Assembly (NCBI GenBank): GCA_015064635.1
Contig: SVRV01000002.1
Coordinates: 80,140 to 144,139 of the forward strand
DNA from: Oscillospiraceae bacterium
GTDB taxonomy: Bacteria > Bacillota > Clostridia > Oscillospirales > SIG627
Direction of reading: 5' to 3'
DNA length: 64,000 bases
Shown piece after piece: positions 166-58,273 of this stretch. Positions within the stretch are counted from its first letter, which is position 1. Every line of letters begins with the position of its first letter. The notes under the pieces are model-generated. The model was not told the DNA's origin. It saw only the letters and a list, made by a program, of their open reading frames with translations, and ran no database searches. Made by a program: the position numbers and the translations under genes.

Positions 166-1302
166 TTATTTATCATAAACAATTCTGCCGCGAGAAATAG
201 TTTTTTCTATTGTCATATCTGTGTCAAGTATAACAATATCTGCATCCTTGCCTTTTTCTATGGAACCAACCTTATCATAAATTCCGGCAGCCATGGCAGG
301 ATTTCTTGTTGCACAAATTACTGCGTCCTCCAAAGAAATCCCTGCAAATTTCATGAGGTTAGTCATACAGTTATACAGATTTGCTGTACTTCCTGCGAGA
401 TTTCCTTCTTTTATTCTTGCCACTCCGTCAACAACATATGTTTCAAGTTCTCCAAGCATATATACGCCGTCAGGCATACCTGCTGCTTGCATTGAATCTG
501 TAACAAGAACAAATCTGTCTCTTGATTTTGTTTTATAAGACATCGCAACAACATCGGGGTTTAAATGCTCGCCATCACAGATGAACTCTGCGTAAGCGTC
601 ACTGAGTAATGCCATTCCAACAACGCCCGGCTCTCTGTGATGAATAGGTGTCATTGCGTTATAAGTATGAGTAAAGCTTGTAGCACCCGCATCAAGAGCC
701 TTCTTTATAACCTCGCTATCGGTCTCTGAATGTCCTATCGAAACCTTTGCACCGAGTGAAACTGCCTCTTTGATAAAATCAATCGCACCGTCAAGCTCAG
801 GAGCGACAGTTATATAAAGTCGCTTGTCACCGGCTAATTCAATATATTCCTTTGTTTCTGAAATATCGGGGGCTTTTAAAAGGTCATGAGGATGTGCGCC
901 TGCTCTTTTAACATTCAGATACGGTCCCTCTACATGTACCCCTCTCAATGAAACTGTGCATTTTTCTTCATCAGCTTCAACAACTGAAAGTATAGCTTTT
1001 TTTGTGTCCACATGCTTTGCTGTCGTTGTAGTGGGAAACAAAGTTGTAACTCCGTGTGAAGAGTAGAACTTACACATTTCAACAAGCTTGTCAGAATCAC
1101 TGTCCATTGTATCTACACCAACTGCGCCGTGAGAATGTATGTCAACAAGTCCGGGTATTACATATTTACCATCCGCATCAACAGTAAAATCATCACAGTC
1201 AAAAACACCTATATCAATAATTTTCCCGTTTTCGATTTTTAAGTCATTTTTATAAAACTTTTTCATAACGGTATTATAAACAAGACCGTTTTTTACAATC
1301 AT
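166..1302 (-). CDS. nagA: N-acetylglucosamine-6-phosphate deacetylase
   Basis: Amidohydrolase motifs DIHSHG, VHVEGPY, GHSET and CDGEHL. I moved the start to the internal ATG at 1302 (MIVKNGLVYN), which has a GGAGG 8 nt upstream. The track start at 1350 would overlap the predicted promoter. Confidence 0.85.
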   Translation of the reverse strand: MIVKNGLVYNTVMKKFYKNDLKIENGKIIDIGVFDCDDFTVDADGKYVIPGLVDIHSHGAVGVDTMDSDSDKLVEMCKFYSSHGVTTLFPTTTTAKHVDTKKAILSVVEADEEKCTVSLRGVHVEGPYLNVKRAGAHPHDLLKAPDISETKEYIELAGDKRLYITVAPELDGAIDFIKEAVSLGAKVSIGHSETDSEVIKKALDAGATSFTHTYNAMTPIHHREPGVVGMALLSDAYAEFICDGEHLNPDVVAMSYKTKSRDRFVLVTDSMQAAGMPDGVYMLGELETYVVDGVARIKEGNLAGSTANLYNCMTNLMKFAGISLEDAVICATRNPAMAAGIYDKVGSIEKGKDADIVILDTDMTIEKTISRGRIVYDK

Positions 1303-1511: not shown

Positions 1512-1640
1512 ATGGCTTGCTACAACAACACATGCAACACATGTAACTCATGCGGTTCAAACAACGGCATTCTCGGCAACGACCTTTGGATTTGGATCGT
1601 AATAATCGCATTAGTAGTCATTCTCTTCGGAATAGGCTAA
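1512..1640 (+). CDS. 42-aa Cys/Asn-rich tiny membrane peptide (YjcZ-like / tiny_TM style)
   Basis: Too short for the ORF track. GAAGGAGGG lies 7 nt before the ATG. Product is MACYNNTCNTCNSCGSNNGILGNDLWIWIVIIALVVILFGIG: four Cys in the N-terminal half, then one hydrophobic helix. A strong hairpin follows. A CATACTATA element (mother-cell sigma -10 style) lies ~35 nt upstream. Confidence 0.45.
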   Translation: MACYNNTCNTCNSCGSNNGILGNDLWIWIVIIALVVILFGIG

Positions 1641-1680
1641 AAAGCAAAAAGAAAGGGCGGTTCACCGCCCTTTCATTCTT
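1641..1680. terminator. bidirectional intrinsic terminator
   Basis: AAAGGGCGG ttca CCGCCCTTT (1652-1673), flanked by an A-run on the left and a T-run on the right. It serves the plus-strand tiny ORF and the minus-strand HAD gene. Confidence 0.7.
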
Positions 1681-2326
1681 TTAAAAGATTGTATAGTTGC
1701 TTTGAATCTTCCGCTATAAAATCAGGATGTATACTCTCAAACGAAGCCTTTCCCCCAAATCCCCATGTAACTCCCACTGATTTTATATTTGCATTTACAG
1801 CAGTTTGTACATCAACTGCCGAATCACCGATAATCATTGTATCATCAGCGGCAAAACCAAATCTGCCGATAATATCCAAAAGTGCATCAGGAGACGGCTT
1901 GTGCGGAAAATCAGGTGAAAAACCGTTCACGGAAGTGAAAATGTCAGGAAGTAAAGTACCGGCTATTTCCTTAACCTGTCTGTCATTTTTATTTGAAAGT
2001 ATAAACAAAGTCTTGCCTTGTTTTTTTAACTCTGTCAGAACTTCCCACATTCCCGGATAAACATATGTATTCACCACAAGATGTTTATCGTAATAATCGT
2101 TATAGAATGCCAAGACCTTTTCCAAAAAAGCATCGTCACGTTTTTCTTCGGGAAGTGCATTAAAAATCAAATTCTTTGCACCTTTGCCAATCATTTTACA
2201 TACAGCCTCTTCGGTATGCTGCGGTAAATTGAAAAAGTCAAGTGCGACATTGACCGATGCAGCTATATCTGCAAGAGTATTAACCAAAGTACCGTCGAGA
2301 TCAAATACCAGTGCTTTATTATCCAT
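1673..2326 (-). CDS. HAD-superfamily phosphatase (phosphoglycolate-phosphatase-like)
   Basis: HAD motif I DLDGTLVNT near the N-terminus, then LSNK and GDSAVD motifs. Confidence 0.7.
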   Translation of the reverse strand: MDNKALVFDLDGTLVNTLADIAASVNVALDFFNLPQHTEEAVCKMIGKGAKNLIFNALPEEKRDDAFLEKVLAFYNDYYDKHLVVNTYVYPGMWEVLTELKKQGKTLFILSNKNDRQVKEIAGTLLPDIFTSVNGFSPDFPHKPSPDALLDIIGRFGFAADDTMIIGDSAVDVQTAVNANIKSVGVTWGFGGKASFESIHPDFIAEDSKQLYNLLKE

Positions 2327-3057: not shown

Positions 3058-4788
3058 ATGTTTTTACCCATAAATAGAAAAGAAATGGAAGAACGAGGAT
3101 GGGATTCTCCTGATTTCGTTTTTGTAAGCGGAGATGCATACGTTGACCATTCAAGCTTTGCAGTAGCCATTATATCAAGATATCTTGAAAAACACGGCTT
3201 CAAAATTGCAATCCTCGCGCAACCTGATTGGAAAAATGCAGACAGCTTTAAAGAATTCGGTCAACCGAGACTGGGATTCCTTATTGCTTCAGGAAATATG
3301 GATTCAATGGTAGCGCATTATACCGTAGCAAAGAAGAAAAGGAACTATGACTATTACTCACCGGGAGGTAAAATAGGCAAACGTCCCGATAGAGCCACAA
3401 TTGTGTATTCAAATAAAATCAGAGAAGCATTCGGTGACATTCCGATAATAATAGGCGGAGTAGAGGCATCACTGAGAAGATTTGCACATTATGATTATTG
3501 GGACAACAAGGTCAGGAACAGTATTCTGATTGACTCCGGTGCCGACATACTCATATACGGTATGGGAGAAAAGGCAGCTCTTGAAATTGCAAAGCTTCTC
3601 GACAGAGGAGTTCCTGTAAAGAAAATTAAAAATATTCGCGGTACCTGCGTACTCTGTCAAAGAGACTACATTCCAAAAGGAAGCTATGACTTCATCGGCG
3701 AAATTGAAGAGCTAAAAACAAGCAAGGAGCTTTATGCACAAGCTTTTGCAACTCAATATATAAATTGTGACAGTATATCCGGAAAAACCTTGCTCGAGGG
3801 AAACGGAAACAGATTACTTGTACAAAATCCACCAATGCCCCCACTTGAAAGAAAAGAACTCGATTTGGTATACGAGCTTGATTATATGAGGGACTACCAT
3901 CCCATATATAAAAAAGAAGGCGGCGTTCCCGCCATACAAGAAGTAAAGTTCTCTATTACCCACAATCGCGGATGCTTCGGCGCCTGCTCTTTTTGTGCAA
4001 TTGCATTTCATCAAGGGCGTGCTGTTCGCTCTCGCTCAATTGAATCTTGCGTTAAGGAAGCCAAGCTTTTAACAGAGCTCCCCGATTTCAAGGGCTATAT
4101 TCATGATGTTGGCGGTCCAACTGCTAACTTCAGGCATCCGGCTTGCGACAAACAGCTGACAGACGGAGTATGTGCCAATAAACGATGCTTATCACCAACC
4201 CCTTGCAAAAATTTAAAAATTGACCATTCTGAATATATAGAATTGCTGAAACGAATTGAAAATGTTCCTAAAGTAAAGAAAGTATTCATTAGGTCCGGTA
4301 TACGTTTCGATTATGTCATGTATGATAAAGACGACGGATTTATGAAAAAGCTGGTAAAAGATCACGTAAGCGGTCAGCTGAGAGTCGCACCCGAACATAA
4401 TTCCAAAAACGTATTGGAAATAATGGGAAAACCTGATATAAGTATTTATAACGGATTTTGTAACAAGTTTTACAAGCTGTCAAGAGAAATTGGCAAAGAA
4501 CAGTATGTTCTACCATACCTTATGTCGAGCCATCCCGGTTCAACAATGGAAGATGCACATAATCTTTCCGACTACATCAAGGAACATAATTTACCGTCAG
4601 AACAAGTTCAAGACTTTTATCCTACCCCTTCTACAAAATCAACCTGCATTTATTACACAGGAATTGACCCTTTTACAAAGAAGAAGATTTACACTGCAAC
4701 CAATTATAAAGAAAAACAGGAGCAAAGAAAATTGCTTCAACCGTCAAAGCCACCCAAAAAGACCTTTGTTTCCAAAAAGAAGAAATAA
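3058..4788 (+). CDS. ygiQ: YgiQ-family radical SAM protein (UPF0313)
   Basis: Family-typical N-terminus MFLPINRKEMEERGWDSPDFVFVSGDAYVDHSSFAVAIISRYLE, CFGACSFC radical-SAM cluster motif, and a Lys-rich tail. Confidence 0.85.
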   Translation: MFLPINRKEMEERGWDSPDFVFVSGDAYVDHSSFAVAIISRYLEKHGFKIAILAQPDWKNADSFKEFGQPRLGFLIASGNMDSMVAHYTVAKKKRNYDYYSPGGKIGKRPDRATIVYSNKIREAFGDIPIIIGGVEASLRRFAHYDYWDNKVRNSILIDSGADILIYGMGEKAALEIAKLLDRGVPVKKIKNIRGTCVLCQRDYIPKGSYDFIGEIEELKTSKELYAQAFATQYINCDSISGKTLLEGNGNRLLVQNPPMPPLERKELDLVYELDYMRDYHPIYKKEGGVPAIQEVKFSITHNRGCFGACSFCAIAFHQGRAVRSRSIESCVKEAKLLTELPDFKGYIHDVGGPTANFRHPACDKQLTDGVCANKRCLSPTPCKNLKIDHSEYIELLKRIENVPKVKKVFIRSGIRFDYVMYDKDDGFMKKLVKDHVSGQLRVAPEHNSKNVLEIMGKPDISIYNGFCNKFYKLSREIGKEQYVLPYLMSSHPGSTMEDAHNLSDYIKEHNLPSEQVQDFYPTPSTKSTCIYYTGIDPFTKKKIYTATNYKEKQEQRKLLQPSKPPKKTFVSKKKK

Positions 4789-54978: not shown

Positions 54979-55012
54979 AAAACCGACAAGTATTTAATCT
55001 TGTCGGTTTTTT
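54979..55012 (+). terminator. intrinsic terminator after the GpsA-like gene
   Basis: AAAACCGACAAG / CTTGTCGGTTTT 12-bp stem followed by a T-run. Confidence 0.75.
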
Positions 55013-55140
55013 GAATATAATGACCCTTAACATTTTTATTATAACATGTTTTTTATCCAATGTAAAGAAAAAACATATGCTGAAATAAAATTTCTCTTTG
55101 GTGCACAAAAAACGAGTTAAATGTTTTGCATTTTTGTCAA

Positions 55141-55169
55141 TTGAAAAAAGTGCAAAAAGATGCTATACT
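55141..55169 (+). promoter_or_regulatory. near-consensus sigma-A promoter with no protein gene behind it
   Basis: TTGAAA, 17 nt, TATACT, with a TGc extended -10. Confidence 0.6.
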
Positions 55170-55175
55170 ATAAAC

Positions 55176-55408
55176 GAAGAAAGGAAGGTACACTCCAATG
55201 AACAAATAAACCTTCAAAAGTGACGACGGCGAAAACACGGCGGTGTAACGCAGAAGATATATAAATATAACAAGGAGAAAATATAATTCCCGTCATCGTC
55301 ACAAACAATTCAAATAGTAGAAAGAGAGGAAACCTTAGATGCTCGATATCAAGACAGAACAGAAATAACCCTCAACAGCGAATGTTGTTGAGGGTTATTT
55401 CTTTTGAG
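55176..55408 (+). ncRNA. candidate ~230-nt small RNA or orphan leader (unclassified)
   Basis: Bounded by the promoter above and a 15-bp-stem terminator. It has a long-range helix: GUGACGACGG (55220-55229) with CCGUCAUCGUCAC (55289-55302). It also holds two SD-preceded micro-ORFs: MNK at 55198-55209 and MLDIKTEQK at 55339-55368. Confidence 0.4.
55363..55408 (+). terminator. strong unidirectional intrinsic terminator
   Basis: AAATAACCCTCAACA (55363-55377) pairs with TGTTGAGGGTTATTT (55386-55400), followed by CTTTTG. There is no U-run in the minus orientation. Confidence 0.8.
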
Positions 55409-55723
55409 TGTGACTTAATAACAGTGTTATTCCTTGTTAAAGTTCAAATTTAGTTTATGGTTCAAGCCCCTCTGTCCGATCCTTTTCTTACTTTTTGCAA
55501 AAAAAGGACACCGGCATTTTGGTCATTTTCGAGTATAAAAAGAGTGTCATAGTATCTTTTTCAAGCAGCTCCGAATCTGATTCTTGTATGTTTTTCCTTT
55601 CTCAGACACAAAGCTAAAAACAGTCCTCAGGACTGTTTTCTTCACGCTTTGTCCCCTCCCAGGGTTCAAGTCCCTTCCATTTATAACAAAAAGAAAAGAG
55701 TACCTCTGGTACTCTTTTCTTTT

Positions 55724-55745
55724 TGGTGCGAGAGACGGGACTTGA
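55724..55745 (-). pseudogene. orphan copy of the last 22 nt of tRNA-Leu(GAG), from the T-loop to CCA
   Basis: TCAAGTCCCGTCTCTCGCACCA (minus strand) is identical to 55906-55927. The upstream sequence is unrelated to the tRNA body. Confidence 0.85.
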
Positions 55746-55842
55746 CGCAAATCTTTGATTTGCTCTTTCTTCGGGCATAGCCCTCAGACACAAAGCTAAA
55801 AACAGTCCTCAGGACTGTTTTCTTCACGCTTTGTCCCCTCCC
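55746..55842. repeat. conserved hairpin-rich module, copy 1 (the right-hand 60 nt also occur at 55601-55660)
   Basis: Three hairpins: GCAAATC-ttt-GATTTGC; GGGC-ata-GCCC; and ACAAAGC...GCTTTGT enclosing ACAGTCC-tca-GGACTGT. About 90% identical to 56168-56263. Confidence 0.8.
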
Positions 55843-55868
55843 AGGGTTCAAGTCCCTTCCATTTATAA

Positions 55869-55905
55869 CAAAAAGAAAAGAGTACCTTTGGTACTCTTTT
55901 CTTTT
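55869..55905 (-). terminator. intrinsic terminator directly after tRNA-Leu(GAG) (a copy lies at 55687-55723)
   Basis: AAAAGAGTACC aaa GGTACTCTTTT, followed by CTTTTT. It is flanked by runs on both sides, so it could act bidirectionally. Confidence 0.75.
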
Positions 55906-55988
55906 TGGTGCGAGAGACGGGACTTGAACCCGTACGGATAACCACACGCCCCTCAAACGTGCGCGTCTGCCAATTTCGCCACTCTCGC
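55906..55988 (-). tRNA. tRNA-Leu (anticodon GAG), CCA encoded
   Basis: Manual cloverleaf. Acceptor GCGAGAG/CUCUCGC. D-arm GCG-AAAUUGGCAGA-CGC. Anticodon arm CACGU-UUGAGGG-GCGUG. Long variable arm. T-arm ACGGG-UUCAAGU-CCCGU. Ends ACCA. Confidence 0.9.
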
Positions 55989-56013
55989 ATAGGTCTCTCA
56001 ACTGACCTTTTAT

Positions 56014-56041
56014 ATTATACACATTTTTTTGTAAATGTCAA
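56014..56041 (-). promoter_or_regulatory. sigma-A promoter for tRNA-Leu(GAG)
   Basis: Minus strand: TTGACA, 16 nt, TATAAT, about 25 nt before the tRNA 5' end. Confidence 0.7.
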
Positions 56042-56145
56042 TACCTTTTGAAGAAAAAGTTTAAATTAGTTTTTATGAGGTTCAAGTCCTTCATTTTATC
56101 ATATCAAAAATATAGAGAGTACCTTTTGGGTACTCTCTATATTTT

Positions 56146-56167
56146 TGGTGCGGATAGCAGGACTTGA
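56146..56167 (-). pseudogene. orphan copy of the last 22 nt of tRNA-Leu(CAG)
   Basis: TCAAGTCCTGCTATCCGCACCA (minus strand) is identical to 56333-56354. Confidence 0.85.
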
Positions 56168-56263
56168 CGCAAATCAAGATTTGCTATCTCCTCGGGCATA
56201 GCCCTCGGACACAAAGCTAAAAACAGTCCACAGGACTGTTTTCTTCACGCTTTGTCCCTCCTT
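56168..56263. repeat. conserved hairpin-rich module, copy 2
   Basis: Same three-hairpin layout as 55746-55842. The differences are confined to hairpin loops and linkers. Confidence 0.8.
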
Positions 56264-56332
56264 GAGGTTCAAGTCCTCTCTTTTATCATATCAAAAATAT
56301 AGAGAGTACCTTTTGGGCACTCTCTATATTTT

Positions 56333-56419
56333 TGGTGCGGATAGCAGGACTTGAACCTGTACCGAATCACTCCGACTAGAACCTGAATCTAGCGCGTCTG
56401 CCAATTCCGCCATATCCGC
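56333..56419 (-). tRNA. tRNA-Leu (anticodon CAG), CCA encoded
   Basis: Manual cloverleaf. Acceptor GCGGAUA/UAUCCGC. D-arm GCG-GAAUUGGCAGA-CGC. Anticodon arm CUAGA-UUCAGGU-UCUAG. Long variable arm. T-loop UUCAAGU. Confidence 0.9.
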
Positions 56420-56432
56420 ATACAACAGATGT

Positions 56433-56461
56433 ATTATATCAAAACAAAGCGCGTTTGTCAA
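56433..56461 (-). promoter_or_regulatory. consensus sigma-A promoter for tRNA-Leu(CAG)
   Basis: Minus strand: TTGACA, 17 nt, TATAAT. Confidence 0.75.
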
Positions 56462-56481
56462 GTGAAAACGCTAAAATAAAT

Positions 56482-56517
56482 CAAAAGACAGACACCCCGT
56501 CATATAGCGGGGTGTCT
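56482..56517 (-). terminator. intrinsic terminator of the hydrogenase operon
   Basis: AGACACCCCG (56490-56499) pairs with CGGGGTGTCT (56508-56517), followed on the minus strand by a U-rich tract. Confidence 0.7.
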
Positions 56518-56536
56518 TGAGCTTTTATGCTAATGA

Positions 56537-58273
56537 TTACATTTTCTTTCTCGGAACGTATGTTGTATGAAGGTCATGGTGAGCCTTGTGACCGCCGAAT
56601 CCGTCGTAATACTCTTCATAGAGCTTCTTAACAACGGGAGACTCATGTGACTTTCTGATAGCCATTGCTGCATCCTGATCGTAGAGCGCCTTAGCACGTA
56701 CCGCCTTAAGGTCAACTGTATCACGAACAGACTGAGGCTGAATAGGCTGACCGCCGCCGTTTACACAACCGCCGGGACATCCCATGATTTCAACGAATGT
56801 CCAATCAGAGTTACCGCTTGCGATTCTGTCCATAACTACCTTAGCAGCAGCTGCACCACTTGCAACAGCAACCTTGATATCAAGACCTGCTATATTGAGA
56901 GATGCTTCCTTGAGACCGTCTGTACCACGAACTGCAGTAAAGTCGATTTCTGTGTTATCCTTACCTGTGAGCCAGTCATTAGCTGTACGGAGAGCTGCCT
57001 CCATAACACCGCCTGTTGCACCAAAGATAACAGCAGCACCTGTATCTTCACCAAGAGGAGAATCGAATTCTTCATCGGGAAGAGATGTGAACTTGAGTCC
57101 GGCACGTTCAATCATTCTGCCGAGTTCTCTTGTTGTGATTGCGATATCAACATCGGGAACACCTGCAGCGCTCTGGTCATCTCTGCCTATCTCGAACTTC
57201 TTAGCTGTACAAGGCATAACTGATACTGATACGATATCCTTGGGGTCTATACCCATCTTTTCAGCATAATATGTCTTGATAACCGCACCTGCCATCTGTT
57301 GAGGAGACTTACAAGATGAAAGGTGAGCGAGGAATTCGGGATAATAGTATTCAGCAAACTTAACCCATCCGGGGGAGCATGAAGTAATCATGGGGAGAAC
57401 TCCGCCATTCTTTACTCTGTCGATAAGCTCGTTTGCTTCTTCAACGATTGTAAGGTCAGCTGCAAAGTCTGTGTCGAATACCTTGTCAAAGCCAAGTCTT
57501 CTGAGAGCTGCAACCATCTTACCTTCTACATTTGTACCGATAGGCATACCGAAGCACTCACCGAGAGTTGCACGAACTGAAGGAGCAGTCTGAACAACTA
57601 CGTGCTTTGTGGGATCAGCAATAGCTGCCCAAACCTTATCTGTATCATCCTTTTCTGTAAGAGCACCGGTGGGACATACCGCTGTACACTGACCGCATGA
57701 AATACATGAAGTAGCGTTGAGCTTTACATTGAAGGGATTACCGATATTTGTATCGATACCTCTGTCGTTAGCACCGATGATAGATACATACTGCTGGTCA
57801 CAAACAGCAACACAGCGACGGCAAAGGATACACTTGTTGTTATCACGAACAAGGTGGGGAGCAGACTCATCAAGCTCATACTCACGCTTGTAACCGCCAA
57901 ATGCATTTTCATCAACTCCGTACTCACGGCAGAGCTTCTGGAGTTCACAGTTTGTTGAACGCTTACAAGACAGACACTTCTTATCATGTGTTGAAAGAAT
58001 AAGTTCGAGAGTGGTCTTACGAGCCTTCTGAATTTTTTCGGTATTTGTCTGTATTTCCATGCCTTCGGCTACAGGATATACACAAGCGGTAACAAGACCT
58101 CTTGCACCTGTTGCCTCAACAACACATATACGGCAAGCACCTATTTCGTTAATATCCTTCATGAAGCAAAGGGTGGGGATTTCTACACCTGCAACACGTG
58201 CTGCTTCAAGAATTGTTGATCCCTTGGGCACGCTGACAGCAATGCCATTTACTTTACAATTAATCATTTCCAT
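56537..58273 (-). CDS. hydA: [FeFe]-hydrogenase catalytic subunit, M3 architecture (HydA of multimeric NAD(P)H-linked enzymes)
   Basis: N-terminal 2Fe-2S, a His-ligated 4Fe-4S, and two ferredoxin-type clusters. H-cluster motifs are TSCSPGW, MPCTAKKFE and EIMGCPGGCVNGGGQP. Confidence 0.9.
   Translation of the reverse strand: MEMINCKVNGIAVSVPKGSTILEAARVAGVEIPTLCFMKDINEIGACRICVVEATGARGLVTACVYPVAEGMEIQTNTEKIQKARKTTLELILSTHDKKCLSCKRSTNCELQKLCREYGVDENAFGGYKREYELDESAPHLVRDNNKCILCRRCVAVCDQQYVSIIGANDRGIDTNIGNPFNVKLNATSCISCGQCTAVCPTGALTEKDDTDKVWAAIADPTKHVVVQTAPSVRATLGECFGMPIGTNVEGKMVAALRRLGFDKVFDTDFAADLTIVEEANELIDRVKNGGVLPMITSCSPGWVKFAEYYYPEFLAHLSSCKSPQQMAGAVIKTYYAEKMGIDPKDIVSVSVMPCTAKKFEIGRDDQSAAGVPDVDIAITTRELGRMIERAGLKFTSLPDEEFDSPLGEDTGAAVIFGATGGVMEAALRTANDWLTGKDNTEIDFTAVRGTDGLKEASLNIAGLDIKVAVASGAAAAKVVMDRIASGNSDWTFVEIMGCPGGCVNGGGQPIQPQSVRDTVDLKAVRAKALYDQDAAMAIRKSHESPVVKKLYEEYYDGFGGHKAHHDLHTTYVPRKKM

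Follow-up and report, generated by a model that had tools for sequence, protein, structure and literature searches.

A protein-less folded unit recurs at tRNA and rpsI gene ends in gut Clostridia and may be a miniature site-specific insertion element

The 3′ ends of tRNA genes and of rpsI are classic targets of tyrosine integrases in Firmicutes, where tandem accretion and decayed elements have been reported (PMC5357655). Mobile DNA of Firmicutes also carries origins of the ssoA type, which are about 150 nt long, folded, active on one strand and in one orientation, and conserved in structure more than in sequence (PMC5703833). The attC sites of integrons and the attP(+) site of CTX phage are imperfect palindromes whose active form is a single strand folded on itself. 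IS200/IS605 elements carry short internal guides that pair with the target, and the guide of a group I intron is complementary to both sides of its junction. Here we describe a unit of about 180 bp (150 to 190 bp) that encodes no protein and sits in the T-arm of tRNA genes that are kept intact, and we compare it with these systems.

In the window, a 64,000-nucleotide stretch of DNA from an Oscillospiraceae bacterium, a conserved module is bordered by sequences derived from two tRNA-Leu genes on the minus strand, 55906-55988 and 56333-56419. Downstream of each tRNA-Leu gene, the order is terminator, inverted copy of the gene's own T-arm, module and a duplicate of the last 22 bases of the tRNA. 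The motif GGTTCAAGYCC occurs seven times on alternating strands, against 0.04 occurrences expected. ARAGORN found the two tRNA-Leu genes only, and the tRNA sequence borne by the module is limited to the final 22 nt. A plus-strand pseudo-tRNA was considered and rejected, as ARAGORN predicted none and the T-arm alone is copied. A sequence-only reading of the module had overlooked the two tRNA genes, the tRNA 3′ fragments and the inverted T-arm copies and, because of this, the mobile-element context. The two arrays contain the following features.

56333-56419, minus strand: tRNA-Leu(CAG), intact, CCA encoded (ARAGORN; Rfam tRNA, 49.8 bits)
56461-56433, minus strand: promoter of tRNA-Leu(CAG), perfect sigma-70 type, TTGACA-17-TATAAT
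56264-56358, minus strand: palindromic attachment module S(A1), inverted repeats I10 and I16
56159-56277, minus strand: unit A, folded module with its arms (covariance model, 134.3 bits)
56146-56167, minus strand: duplicate of the last 22 nt of tRNA-Leu(CAG), TCAAGTCCTGCTATCCGCACCA, beginning in the T-loop (direct repeat D2)
56076-56145, minus strand: end of array A, with second terminator (56105-56147), spacer and inverted T-arm (repeats D2 and I7)
55906-55988, minus strand: tRNA-Leu(GAG), intact (ARAGORN and Rfam), with its own promoter at 56041-56014
55844-55931, minus strand: palindromic attachment module S(B1), inverted repeats I9 and I14 (DNA fold z = −10.5)
55737-55856, minus strand: unit B1, folded module with its arms (covariance model, 136.6 bits), containing module copy 55746-55842
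55724-55745, minus strand: duplicate of the last 22 nt of tRNA-Leu(GAG) (direct repeat; locus L154 is identical to the window)
55662-55723, minus strand: second terminator of array B (55687-55725), spacer and inverted T-arm at 55662-55674 (inverted repeats I8 and I13)
55601-55661, minus strand: unit B2, truncated (covariance model match 55572-55674, 71.5 bits; alignment)
55440-55530, minus strand: probable decayed third attachment module (motif match, read by eye)

Attachment module S(A1) contains the tRNA sequence from T-arm to CCA and then a terminator hairpin (56292-56334), which a spacer of 14 nt separates from the inverted copy of the T-arm, AGGACTTGAACCT, at 56265-56277. The whole forms a forked hairpin (DNA fold −28.5 kcal/mol, z = −11.1), and architecture of the same type was found at more than 40 other tRNAs. 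S(B1) likewise runs from T-arm to CCA and continues through a terminator (55869-55907) and a spacer to the inverted copy GGGACTTGAACCC at 55844-55856. Forked attachment hairpins measured 72 to 106 nt with z of about −10 to −11; a symmetric internal loop is found again in the forked palindromes of other loci, where some of the spacers can still pair with the acceptor strand. Unit A in turn folds into a five-way junction (−52.3 kcal/mol, z = −6.7), in which helix P1 forms between the inverted T-arm copy and the T-loop portion of the tRNA fragment and P1a is a small hairpin, CCUC-AAG-GAGG. The remaining helices are the core hairpin (56207-56257), hp2 (56194-56204) and hp1 (56169-56184), and a purine linker reads GAGGAGAUA. 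Unit B1 folds at −55.6 kcal/mol (z = −7.7), and units folded with their arms ranged from z = −6.1 to −7.7 on either strand.

Repeated sequence extends beyond the complete units. The stretch 56076-56167 is 96% identical to 56263-56354, and a 145-nt repeat at 55601-55745, which holds the truncated copy, is 99% identical to 55783-55927. In unit B2, P1a and the core hairpins are present, and hp2, hp1 and the tRNA fragment are missing or diverged past 55601. The probable decayed module at 55440-55530 has a weak hairpin and an inverted T-arm-like sequence, GGGGCTTGAACC (plus strand GGTTCAAGCCC, 55459-55469), and judged by eye, the flank that follows it resembles the flank of the array A end, 56065-56091.

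The module copies at 55746-55842 and 56168-56263 had been described as about 90% identical, and alignment gave 87 identical positions in 98 columns (88.8%). A partial third copy, also noticed before, is the truncated one at 55601-55661, which matches copy 55746-55842 over that stretch; a 45-nt core pattern occurred three times in the window against none expected from shuffles. As had been stated, the differences lie mostly outside stems, namely, in the hp1 loop (ttt/aa), in the core loop (t/a) and at three linker positions. The one base changed at the foot of the long helix converts G-C to G.U when read on the minus strand, and the same change reads as A.C on the plus strand. Other differences between the two copies fall at the right-hand end, in the small GNRA-type hairpin and the tRNA-specific arm. 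The linker does not vary freely as a spacer would; on the minus strand, it is rich in purines (GAGGAGA-like) and conserved. Between the two arrays, the module is 89% identical, the attachment module 76% and the tRNA genes 74%.

A search for further homologues with pattern scans recovered more than 140 core matches, relatives of the module in gut and rumen Clostridia. The productive scans were a stem-only pattern and a hairpin pattern, and strict 20- to 23-nt patterns gave no match in viral or metagenome contigs. Six of 17 genome matches were set aside by eye as chance (L006, L008, L012, L015, L021 and L022), and several GC-rich metagenome matches (L035, L044, L061, L091 and L103) were rejected as unrelated terminators that share the hairpin. 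Relatives sit behind at least 17 tRNA species and the ribosomal gene rpsI, with the same architecture behind Leu-TAG, Val, Arg, Met, Asn, Gly, Pro, Ala, Cys, Trp, Thr and Ser tRNAs as well as rpsI. Arrays hold one to three units, and some finish in truncated modules, as in L017 and unit B2. We conclude that the anatomy of the unit recurs across these tRNA species and rpsI, and the family is large and apparently undescribed in gut Clostridia.

The arms of the unit follow the target. Of 54 module-bearing tRNAs, 43 were followed within 160 nt by an inverted T-arm copy that was exact over 10 nt or more, against a chance expectation of about 0.003 per tRNA by hand calculation, and the inverted copy spanned the insertion junction in 36 of 37 nonredundant tRNA units. 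Depending on the class, the junction fell at tRNA positions ranging from 54 to 66, next to differing bases, and there is therefore no common crossover sequence. The duplicated tail likewise varied in length, from 10 to 23 nt or more. Over the 45 nt after CCA, gene and fragment were either 78 to 100% or 44 to 69% identical. By eye, terminators of this class look alike across tRNAs and species, and the distal terminator of L009 is unrelated; both observations favor a terminator that belongs to the element. We conclude that both arms match the local target.

To characterize the fold, a covariance model was built on 76 distinct sequences. Paired cells made up 91% of the covariance alignment, compared to 72% after shuffling, and the covariation score was 0.218, which 0 of 500 shuffles reached, compared to 0.064 for shuffled alignments and 0.02 to 0.04 when partners were slid. 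Compensatory change was strong in four helices, so the earlier proposal of a structure-constrained element is borne out by its homologues. The conserved fold comprises the outer helix, hp2, hp1 and the GNRA hairpin in a five-way junction closed by tRNA-derived arms; P1a is GNRA capped, and its stems seem by eye to co-vary. Nucleotides of an internal loop, GCGUNAAG...UAGC, are also conserved. The functional strand, previously left open, is settled by the core hairpin, in which G.U pairs outnumber A.C by 118 to 2 and therefore identify the window minus strand as the folded strand; a second count gave 37 to 0. Three ideas were set aside: that the module is orientation-free cargo (helix P1a shares its 5′ strand with the inverted copy), that the linker copies the tRNA 5′ acceptor strand (true of some Leu units only) and that the likeness to a CRISPR repeat and anti-repeat is more than a coincidence of A/U-rich sequences. 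We conclude that the fold is under selection on one strand, either as RNA or as single-stranded DNA.

At rpsI, the short arm matched the local junction exactly in 10 of 13 locus types, tracking the local Pro and Gln codons. Displaced and current rpsI ends differed in 8 of the 13 locus types and did so at synonymous positions only, including TCA versus AGC for serine, and both copies stayed in the reading frame. The two ends therefore both evolved as coding sequence. Compared with the tRNA classes, the rpsI class folds on the strand antisense to its gene and has the positions of its long and short arms exchanged, such that no single geometric rule yet covers both classes. We conclude that both rpsI gene ends once coded.

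Like ICEs, IMEs and prophages of Firmicutes and their protein-less derivatives, which include cis-mobilizable elements and decayed elements in accretion, the units have as targets the 3′ part of tRNA genes and the 3′ end of rpsI. As in those elements, the replacement gene end is supplied by the element so that the gene is intact, the original end forms the far-side direct repeat, and tandem arrays stand at a single site; direct repeats of the target 3′ end flank the unit, the tRNAs are intact, and the rpsI frame is kept. In contrast to them, the unit measures about 180 bp rather than kilobases, has no integrase within or nearby, has a conserved, co-varying, strand-specific fold and a junction-spanning inverted target copy, and uses many T-arm insertion points rather than one per integrase family. 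No recombinase, transposase or integrase was recognized among the 40 largest window open reading frames (ORFs) (up to 50.7 kb), and no recurrent neighboring protein lay within 4 kb of units. The genes nearer the arrays are housekeeping by name (a DeoR regulator, GpsA and a hydrogenase operon), and a further three ORFs past 50.7 kb lack a family annotation. Contigs that encode the same HydA or GpsA protein agree with the window at every position, and in HydA relatives at 89 to 98% identity, hydA is followed by thiF or other genes and not by tRNAs. A search for an empty site or a presence/absence polymorphism found none, as same-strain contigs are identical and close relatives lack synteny.

With integron attC sites and CTX phage attP(+), the units share not only imperfect palindromes but also an inverted repeat across the crossover, short units arrayed at one site and, on the reading proposed below, recognition by structure over sequence and an enzyme encoded elsewhere. 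Forked hairpins, inverted copies that span the junction and arrays of a few units all fit this likeness. The integron boxes RYYYAAC...GTTRRRY did not fit, as the palindrome ends in GGTTCRA...TYGAACC (GTT left, AAC right), and there is no IntI or dif-like site, with no integrase among the window ORFs scanned and none recurring near arrays. Unlike attC, moreover, the palindrome is made of the target gene's own end and a terminator, and unlike integron cassettes, the "cargo" is in every case a folded module of one kind.

MITEs, REPINs and IS200/IS605-derived palindromic elements resemble the units in being small, noncoding, hairpin rich and, as proposed for the units, dependent on a factor in trans, but the units are strictly site specific to conserved gene ends. 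Their inverted repeats are local target copies, the tail ranges from 10 to 23 nt or more, and the sites are tRNA T-arms and the rpsI end, contrary to a MITE; there is no fixed target tetra- or pentanucleotide, and the hairpins differ from one another, contrary to IS200/IS605. A strand-specific fold is also a property of ssoA origins, but an origin leaves the target-derived arms unexplained. Set against the conserved ssoA motifs, RSB and CS-6 (TAGCGT), the units show a weak likeness in variable parts, with TATGCCCGAGGAGA versus TTATGCCGAGAAAATTT for RSB in hp2, which varies freely, and they showed no similarity to plasmids. The combination of a folded scaffold with segments matching the insertion site recalls the IS110 bridge RNA, the TnpB/IscB omega RNA and the group I intron guide. 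Unlike bridge and omega RNAs, the units have no adjacent recombinase or nuclease gene and no Rfam match, and their guides lie at the ends and not in internal loops. Unlike group I and II introns, which are far larger, the module measures about 95 nt and leaves the tRNA gene uninterrupted, and an Rfam intron match is absent.

The earlier statement that the module belongs to no known RNA family agreed with an Rfam covariance model search, which gave no match on the module. With Rfam 15, only two tRNAs reached the gathering threshold in the window, and at E values up to 10, nothing further in the stretch 55000-56600 reached its family's gathering score. Across 18 related loci, only tRNA, Gut-1 and pemK passed, none on the module. 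BLAST of the locus and the module against phages and plasmids returned tRNA-Leu or hairpin-only matches, and literature searches yielded no description of such an element.

The best explanation, in which our confidence is evenly balanced, is that the unit is a miniature, nonautonomous, site-specific insertion element that replaces the end of its target gene and is moved by a factor in trans. One part, the attachment module, has a replacement tRNA 3′ end (T-loop to CCA), its own terminator and an inverted T-arm copy across the insertion point, together making up a forked palindrome of about 90 nt. The second part is the conserved folded module, with its small GNRA hairpin, long core hairpin, hp2 and hp1. 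On insertion, the original tRNA tail would be pushed beyond the element and persist there as the 22-nt fragment, and units may then multiply locally, giving one unit and an end copy at Leu-CAG and two units and remnants at Leu-GAG. The mobilizing factor would be encoded elsewhere, and the element may act in a folded, single-stranded form, where pairing of the inverted and direct target copies in P1 presents or recognizes the target junction, much as attC or CTX phage attP hairpins do. Several points speak against this explanation: no empty site, polymorphism or mobilizing enzyme was found in the searches above, the insertion point varies between classes, the rpsI class has another geometry, and some arrays close with truncated modules. 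In addition, a double-stranded 180-bp circle is too stiff for the usual integrase reactions, and a new matching tRNA tail needs a source when the target changes, as for the two elements in L081. An origin by tandem inversion duplication was rejected, as it requires a parent with the module inside the tRNA gene, which was not seen.

A more tentative proposal, possible though unlikely, is that the unit is a guided mobile or catalytic nucleic acid, an RNA or single-stranded DNA of about 120 nt that finds its site by base pairing. An internal guide would be complementary to both sides of the junction, and a replacement 3′ end of the target would be carried along. The target, be it rpsI or one of 17 or more tRNAs, could then be programmed through sequence, and no protein would be encoded in cis; in one variant, a trans-acting RNA would exchange or repair tRNA 3′ ends.

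Rather than an element, the unit could be a host noncoding RNA, structured, produced by read-through or processing of tRNA 3′ trailers and having an independent role, for example, mimicking a tRNA tail, acting as a sponge or marking a processing site, spread by duplication and gene conversion and not by transposition. We regard this as unlikely. The folded strand is tRNA sense and lies downstream of very strong tRNA promoters, GNRA tetraloops and a multihelix junction are typical of functional RNAs, and the tRNA fragment is still identical to the tRNA, including CCA, whereas the terminators drift. A copy of the core plus hp2 lies in sense orientation within a phage operon. Each unit is nevertheless preceded by a terminator, and the same module stands behind at least 17 different tRNAs and a protein gene. 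At rpsI, the antisense position of the folded strand speaks against such an RNA, as does the lack of a consistent promoter by eye (in L007, from Ruminococcus intestinalis NSJ-71, the next gene runs in the same direction), and the two allelic, once-coding ends point to insertion of foreign sequence at the DNA level.

It is distinctly unlikely that the units are decayed attachment sites, either attL-attR fusions or attP-only remnants left after loss of integrase-bearing islands or prophages, comparable to cis-mobilizable elements and with leftover terminators as hairpins. Independent deletions are not expected to yield one and the same ~100-nt module, identically bounded, across hundreds of genomes, and remnants would lack compensatory changes, a G.U strand bias and GNRA-capped helices. 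Integrase att sites have no junction-spanning inverted copy. In favor of decay, tRNA and rpsI 3′ ends are known integrase targets with accretion (PMC5357655), gene-end direct repeats flank every unit, and in size the unit is close to a typical attP site. Prophage borders or integrase remnants lie beside some loci (L023 and L045), and eight loci have assorted integrase-like proteins nearby, named from sequence alone, but the prophages that adjoin units use the anticodon loop and not the T-arm.

Quite improbable is a guide-carrying catalytic or scaffold RNA, that is, a ribozyme or the scaffold of an RNA-guided recombinase or nuclease, with the inverted copy acting like a group I intron internal guide sequence and the tRNA tail like a 3′ exon. 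Such an RNA would steer insertion or exchange of the target's 3′ end. The inverted copy is the reverse complement of sequence upstream of the junction joined to sequence downstream, as in a two-exon guide, and the order of guide, folded core and replacement 3′ end fits, as do the conserved internal-loop nucleotides and the GNRA loops. Against it, the module is far below known splicing ribozymes in size, Rfam ribozyme, intron and guide RNA families gave no match, no associated protein was found near units, the arm arrangement is opposite in the rpsI class, and an intact gene end and terminator separate the gene body from the guide.

Finally, a plain repeated bidirectional terminator, duplicated by slippage and without further role, is extremely improbable: A and T runs flank the inner hairpin, which was flagged as terminator-like on the minus strand and had been said to look like a bidirectional terminator, but its U-run is paired with the A-run inside a longer, conserved and co-varying helix, so that the module would not be essentially a terminator. 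Covariation in hp1, hp2, P1a and the outer helix contradicts the idea, and the separate terminator already in every unit and the target-specific arms speak against it.

If the reading as a miniature insertion element holds, the units would be the smallest known class of elements that insert into essential genes while repairing them, without a gene of their own and common in human and ruminant gut Clostridia. Arms that change with each target around a constant folded core are the signature of a programmable, nucleic acid-guided system, the target recognition of which is directly testable. With the units, the noncoding repertoire of gut bacteria gains a structured family that is unannotated and shows real covariation. 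Moreover, the element explains assembly breaks behind these tRNA genes and cautions annotators that tRNA 3′ fragments beside tRNA genes are not always prophage scars.

The repeated module lies in a context that the sequence-only reading overlooked, namely two minus-strand tRNA-Leu genes, each with its own perfect sigma-70-type promoter. The features of the region are as follows.

Near 55440-55530: probable decayed array remnant behind tRNA-Leu GAG
55601-55661: third module copy, truncated
55746-55842, read as plus-strand copy: module
55906-55988, minus strand: tRNA-Leu GAG
56168-56263, read as plus-strand copy: module
56333-56419, minus strand: tRNA-Leu CAG

In the tRNA sense, CCA is followed at once by a terminator hairpin, a 13- to 14-nt spacer, an inverted copy of the same tRNA's T-arm (AGGACTTGAACCT or GGGACTTGAACCC), the module, and a second copy of the tRNA's final 22 nt, beginning in the T-loop, past which the terminator and inverted T-arm appear once more. 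We define the module with its tRNA-derived arms as a unit and the units behind one tRNA as an array; the Leu-CAG array has one unit and the Leu-GAG array two, the second truncated. The motif GGTTCAAGYCC occurs 7 times on alternating strands (0.04 expected), and the 45-nt core occurs 3 times in the window and never in shuffles. The two full module copies, previously put at about 90% identity, matched at 87 of 98 aligned columns (88.8%), and the sequence-only reading had located their differences correctly: in the loops of hp1 and the core, at three positions of the linker and at a single nucleotide at the base of the long helix. Between the two Leu loci, identity was 89% for the module, 76% for the tRNA-derived and terminator parts and 74% for the tRNA genes. 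A 145-nt repeat (55601-55745) holding the truncated copy was 99% identical to 55783-55927. We attribute the near-identical repeats of the window to local duplication.

The closest relatives (L160-L162, HydA 94-98% identical) carry hydA, then thiF and a MiaB-like gene, whereas downstream of hydA the window carries two tRNA-Leu arrays and gpsA (55400-56540), and thus the arrays sit at a synteny break. A contig with an identical GpsA protein (L157) diverges from the window at 55136, past gpsA and just before the promoter of an orphan transcription unit; either strain variation or a chimeric assembly may account for this. The orphan unit (55141-55405, plus strand, about 230 nt) has a promoter-like TTGAAA-17-TATACT, a long-range inverted repeat (GTGACGACGG...CCGTCATCGTCAC), a 9-codon ORF (MLDIKTEQK) and a strong terminator at 55358-55405; it had no Rfam match and could be a leader or small RNA.

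A covariance model seeded with 7 sequences of the window's class gave 109 matches in 100 sources, 3 of them in the window, and covariation statistics were taken on 76 distinct sequences. Standard pairs were formed by 91% of cells (72% when shuffled), and the covariation score was 0.218, compared with 0.064 for shuffled alignments and 0.02 to 0.04 when partners were slid; the alignment was fitted to the model and the figures therefore lean towards it, but the margin is large and hand-read sequences agree. None of 500 shuffles reached the observed score, bearing out the earlier proposal of a structure-constrained element. Helix hp2 was paired in 98% of cells, with GC, CG, AU and UA each seen at every position, and the distal stem co-varied (CGAUUC/GAAUCG in locus L048, CAGCCC/GGGCUG in locus L081). 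G.U outnumbered A.C in the core hairpin by 118 to 2 (37 to 0 in the class behind the ribosomal protein gene rpsI alone), indicating that the folded strand is the window's minus strand. Read on the minus strand, the single difference at the base of the long helix converts G-C to G.U; a plus-strand reading would give an A.C mismatch. Each unit is predicted to form a five-way junction (z = -6.7 and -7.7): in P1 the inverted T-arm pairs with the T-loop portion of the tRNA fragment, P1a is a small hairpin that takes its 5' strand from the upstream part of the inverted copy, and the remaining arms are the core hairpin, hp2 and hp1. The P1a loop is GNRA in many classes (GAGA, GUGA, GAAA, GCGA, GGGA).

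Homologues proved abundant. A genome search with a stem-base-only pattern returned 17 loci, of which 11, in Clostridia of ruminant and human guts (Oscillospiraceae, Acutalibacteraceae, Ruminococcus and unclassified lineages), were judged true members; the hairpin pattern gave 11 viral-contig loci and at least 120 metagenome loci. The core motif GC-GUNAAG-AAAAC-stem-loop-stem-GUUUU-UA-GC was common to more than 40 body classes among the matches listed. The unit architecture was found behind at least 17 tRNA species, including Met-CAT, Arg-ACG, Arg-CCG, Asn-GTT, Gly-TCC, Leu-CAG, Leu-GAG, Leu-CAA, Leu-TAG, Val, Ala, Ser, Cys, Trp, Thr and two Pro species, and 26 core hits lay behind rpsI among the matches listed. 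Rfam 15 at gathering thresholds reported the two tRNAs alone, leaving the module as unmatched as it had been to the sequence-only reading, and at E up to 10 no further family reached its own gathering score in 55000-56600. Matches in phage and plasmid collections were limited to tRNA-Leu or the bare inner hairpin, and for the mini-element family no Rfam entry and no description in the searchable literature were found. We conclude that the module is structured and strand-specific, with abundant homologues and covariation, and that the original observation is real and stronger than supposed.

Some loci share less. One distinct class (L070, L145-L147, L099, L152) shares the inner hairpin alone, flanked by GGC-AAAAAC...GUUUUU-AGGACGC and oriented opposite to the regex search result; its members are nonetheless located behind tRNAs and are closed by arms derived from the T-arm. 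Without the rest of the module, the hairpin AAAACAGTCC-NNN-GGACTGTTTT recurs in GC-rich metagenome contigs (L035, L044, L061, L091, L103) and, as GCGTCGGGAAAACAGTCCCCCGGACTGTTTTC, in alphaproteobacterial plasmids (H41-H46), where it appears to be an independent terminator-like repeat.

The arms match the target. Of 54 module-bearing tRNAs, 43 had an exact inverted copy of the T-arm, 10 nt or longer, within 160 nt downstream, and in 36 of 37 non-redundant units this copy spanned the start point of the direct tRNA fragment; the inverted copy thus includes nucleotides from the upstream side of the junction that are otherwise absent from the element. Fragments of 10 to 23 nt place the junction at tRNA positions 54 to 66, the same within one body class as read by eye. 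The T-arm to CCA, terminator, spacer and inverted copy together make a forked hairpin of 72 to 106 nt with a symmetric internal loop, and at several loci the spacer retains complementarity to the acceptor strand. At rpsI, the arms are on swapped sides relative to the tRNA class, and the folded strand is antisense to the gene, without a clear promoter. The long arm copies the last 18 to 25 nt of the gene, and the short arm, which follows GAGGAC, exactly reproduces 6 to 9 nt across the local junction in 10 of 13 locus types, tracking local Pro (CCA/CCT/CCG/CCC) and Gln (CAG/CAA) codons. Displaced and current rpsI ends differed at synonymous positions only in 8 of 13 locus types (in one case, serine TCA versus AGC), which argues that both were once coding and that a gene end of foreign origin was acquired.

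Apart from syntenic rpsI and rplM, no protein family recurred within 4 kb of units; a cluster of low identity, tyrosine-integrase-like by its sequence, occurred in 8 loci. The 40 largest ORFs of the window up to 50.7 kb were all housekeeping and included no recombinase or transposase, and closer to the arrays come genes for a DeoR regulator and GpsA and the hydrogenase operon. The viral match studied closely (L023) represents host sequence at the edge of a prophage, ordered as tyrosine integrase, tRNA-Met 3' part from the anticodon loop, terminator and unit, and L027 has the same layout by eye. No empty site lacking the unit was found among the contigs compared. Separately, a serine recombinase gene, confirmed by Pfam, lies near the L023 unit. 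In L048 (about 1640-1800, minus strand), two tandem core-type hairpins, the second with another distal stem, directly follow an ORF whose N-terminus looks like that of a large serine recombinase. In L032, a GC-rich phage contig lacking a tRNA, a core hairpin and an hp2-like hairpin in sense orientation (3900-4320, minus strand) lie in the gap after an unannotated 518-aa ORF, followed by four CGATATT repeats with a hairpin on each. L025 carries Gut-1 RNA (RF01706, 53.4 bits; 555-629, minus strand) about 130 nt downstream of the unit, just beyond a tRNA-Asn fragment at the apparent start of prophage DNA, and a weaker copy on the opposite strand (454-538, plus strand); Gut-1 may be part of a prophage end.

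A host non-coding RNA derived from the tRNA trailer is an unlikely account of these loci, decayed att remnants of ordinary islands (PMC5357655) are somewhat less likely still, and a guide-carrying ribozyme or scaffold RNA is improbable. A plain terminator repeat is contradicted by the covariation and can be set aside almost entirely. The best-supported reading is a site-specific element, which would insert in the tRNA T-arm or the rpsI end and swap in its own gene tail. That it may bring its own gene end and terminator is suggested by post-CCA sequence either 78 to 100% or 44 to 69% identical between gene and fragment and by similar terminators of this class across tRNAs and species (by eye), the distal one being sometimes unrelated (L009). 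The element would act as a folded single strand in which the inverted target copy pairs with the direct copy, the nearest analogues being integron attC sites and the CTX-phage attP hairpin. The GNRA loops point to RNA as that strand, whereas single-stranded DNA is favoured by the rpsI class, where the fold runs antisense to the gene and has no clear promoter. We conclude that the module is embedded in a tRNA-targeting mini-element family and that its unit is best read as a miniature, non-autonomous site-specific element that replaces the gene tail.
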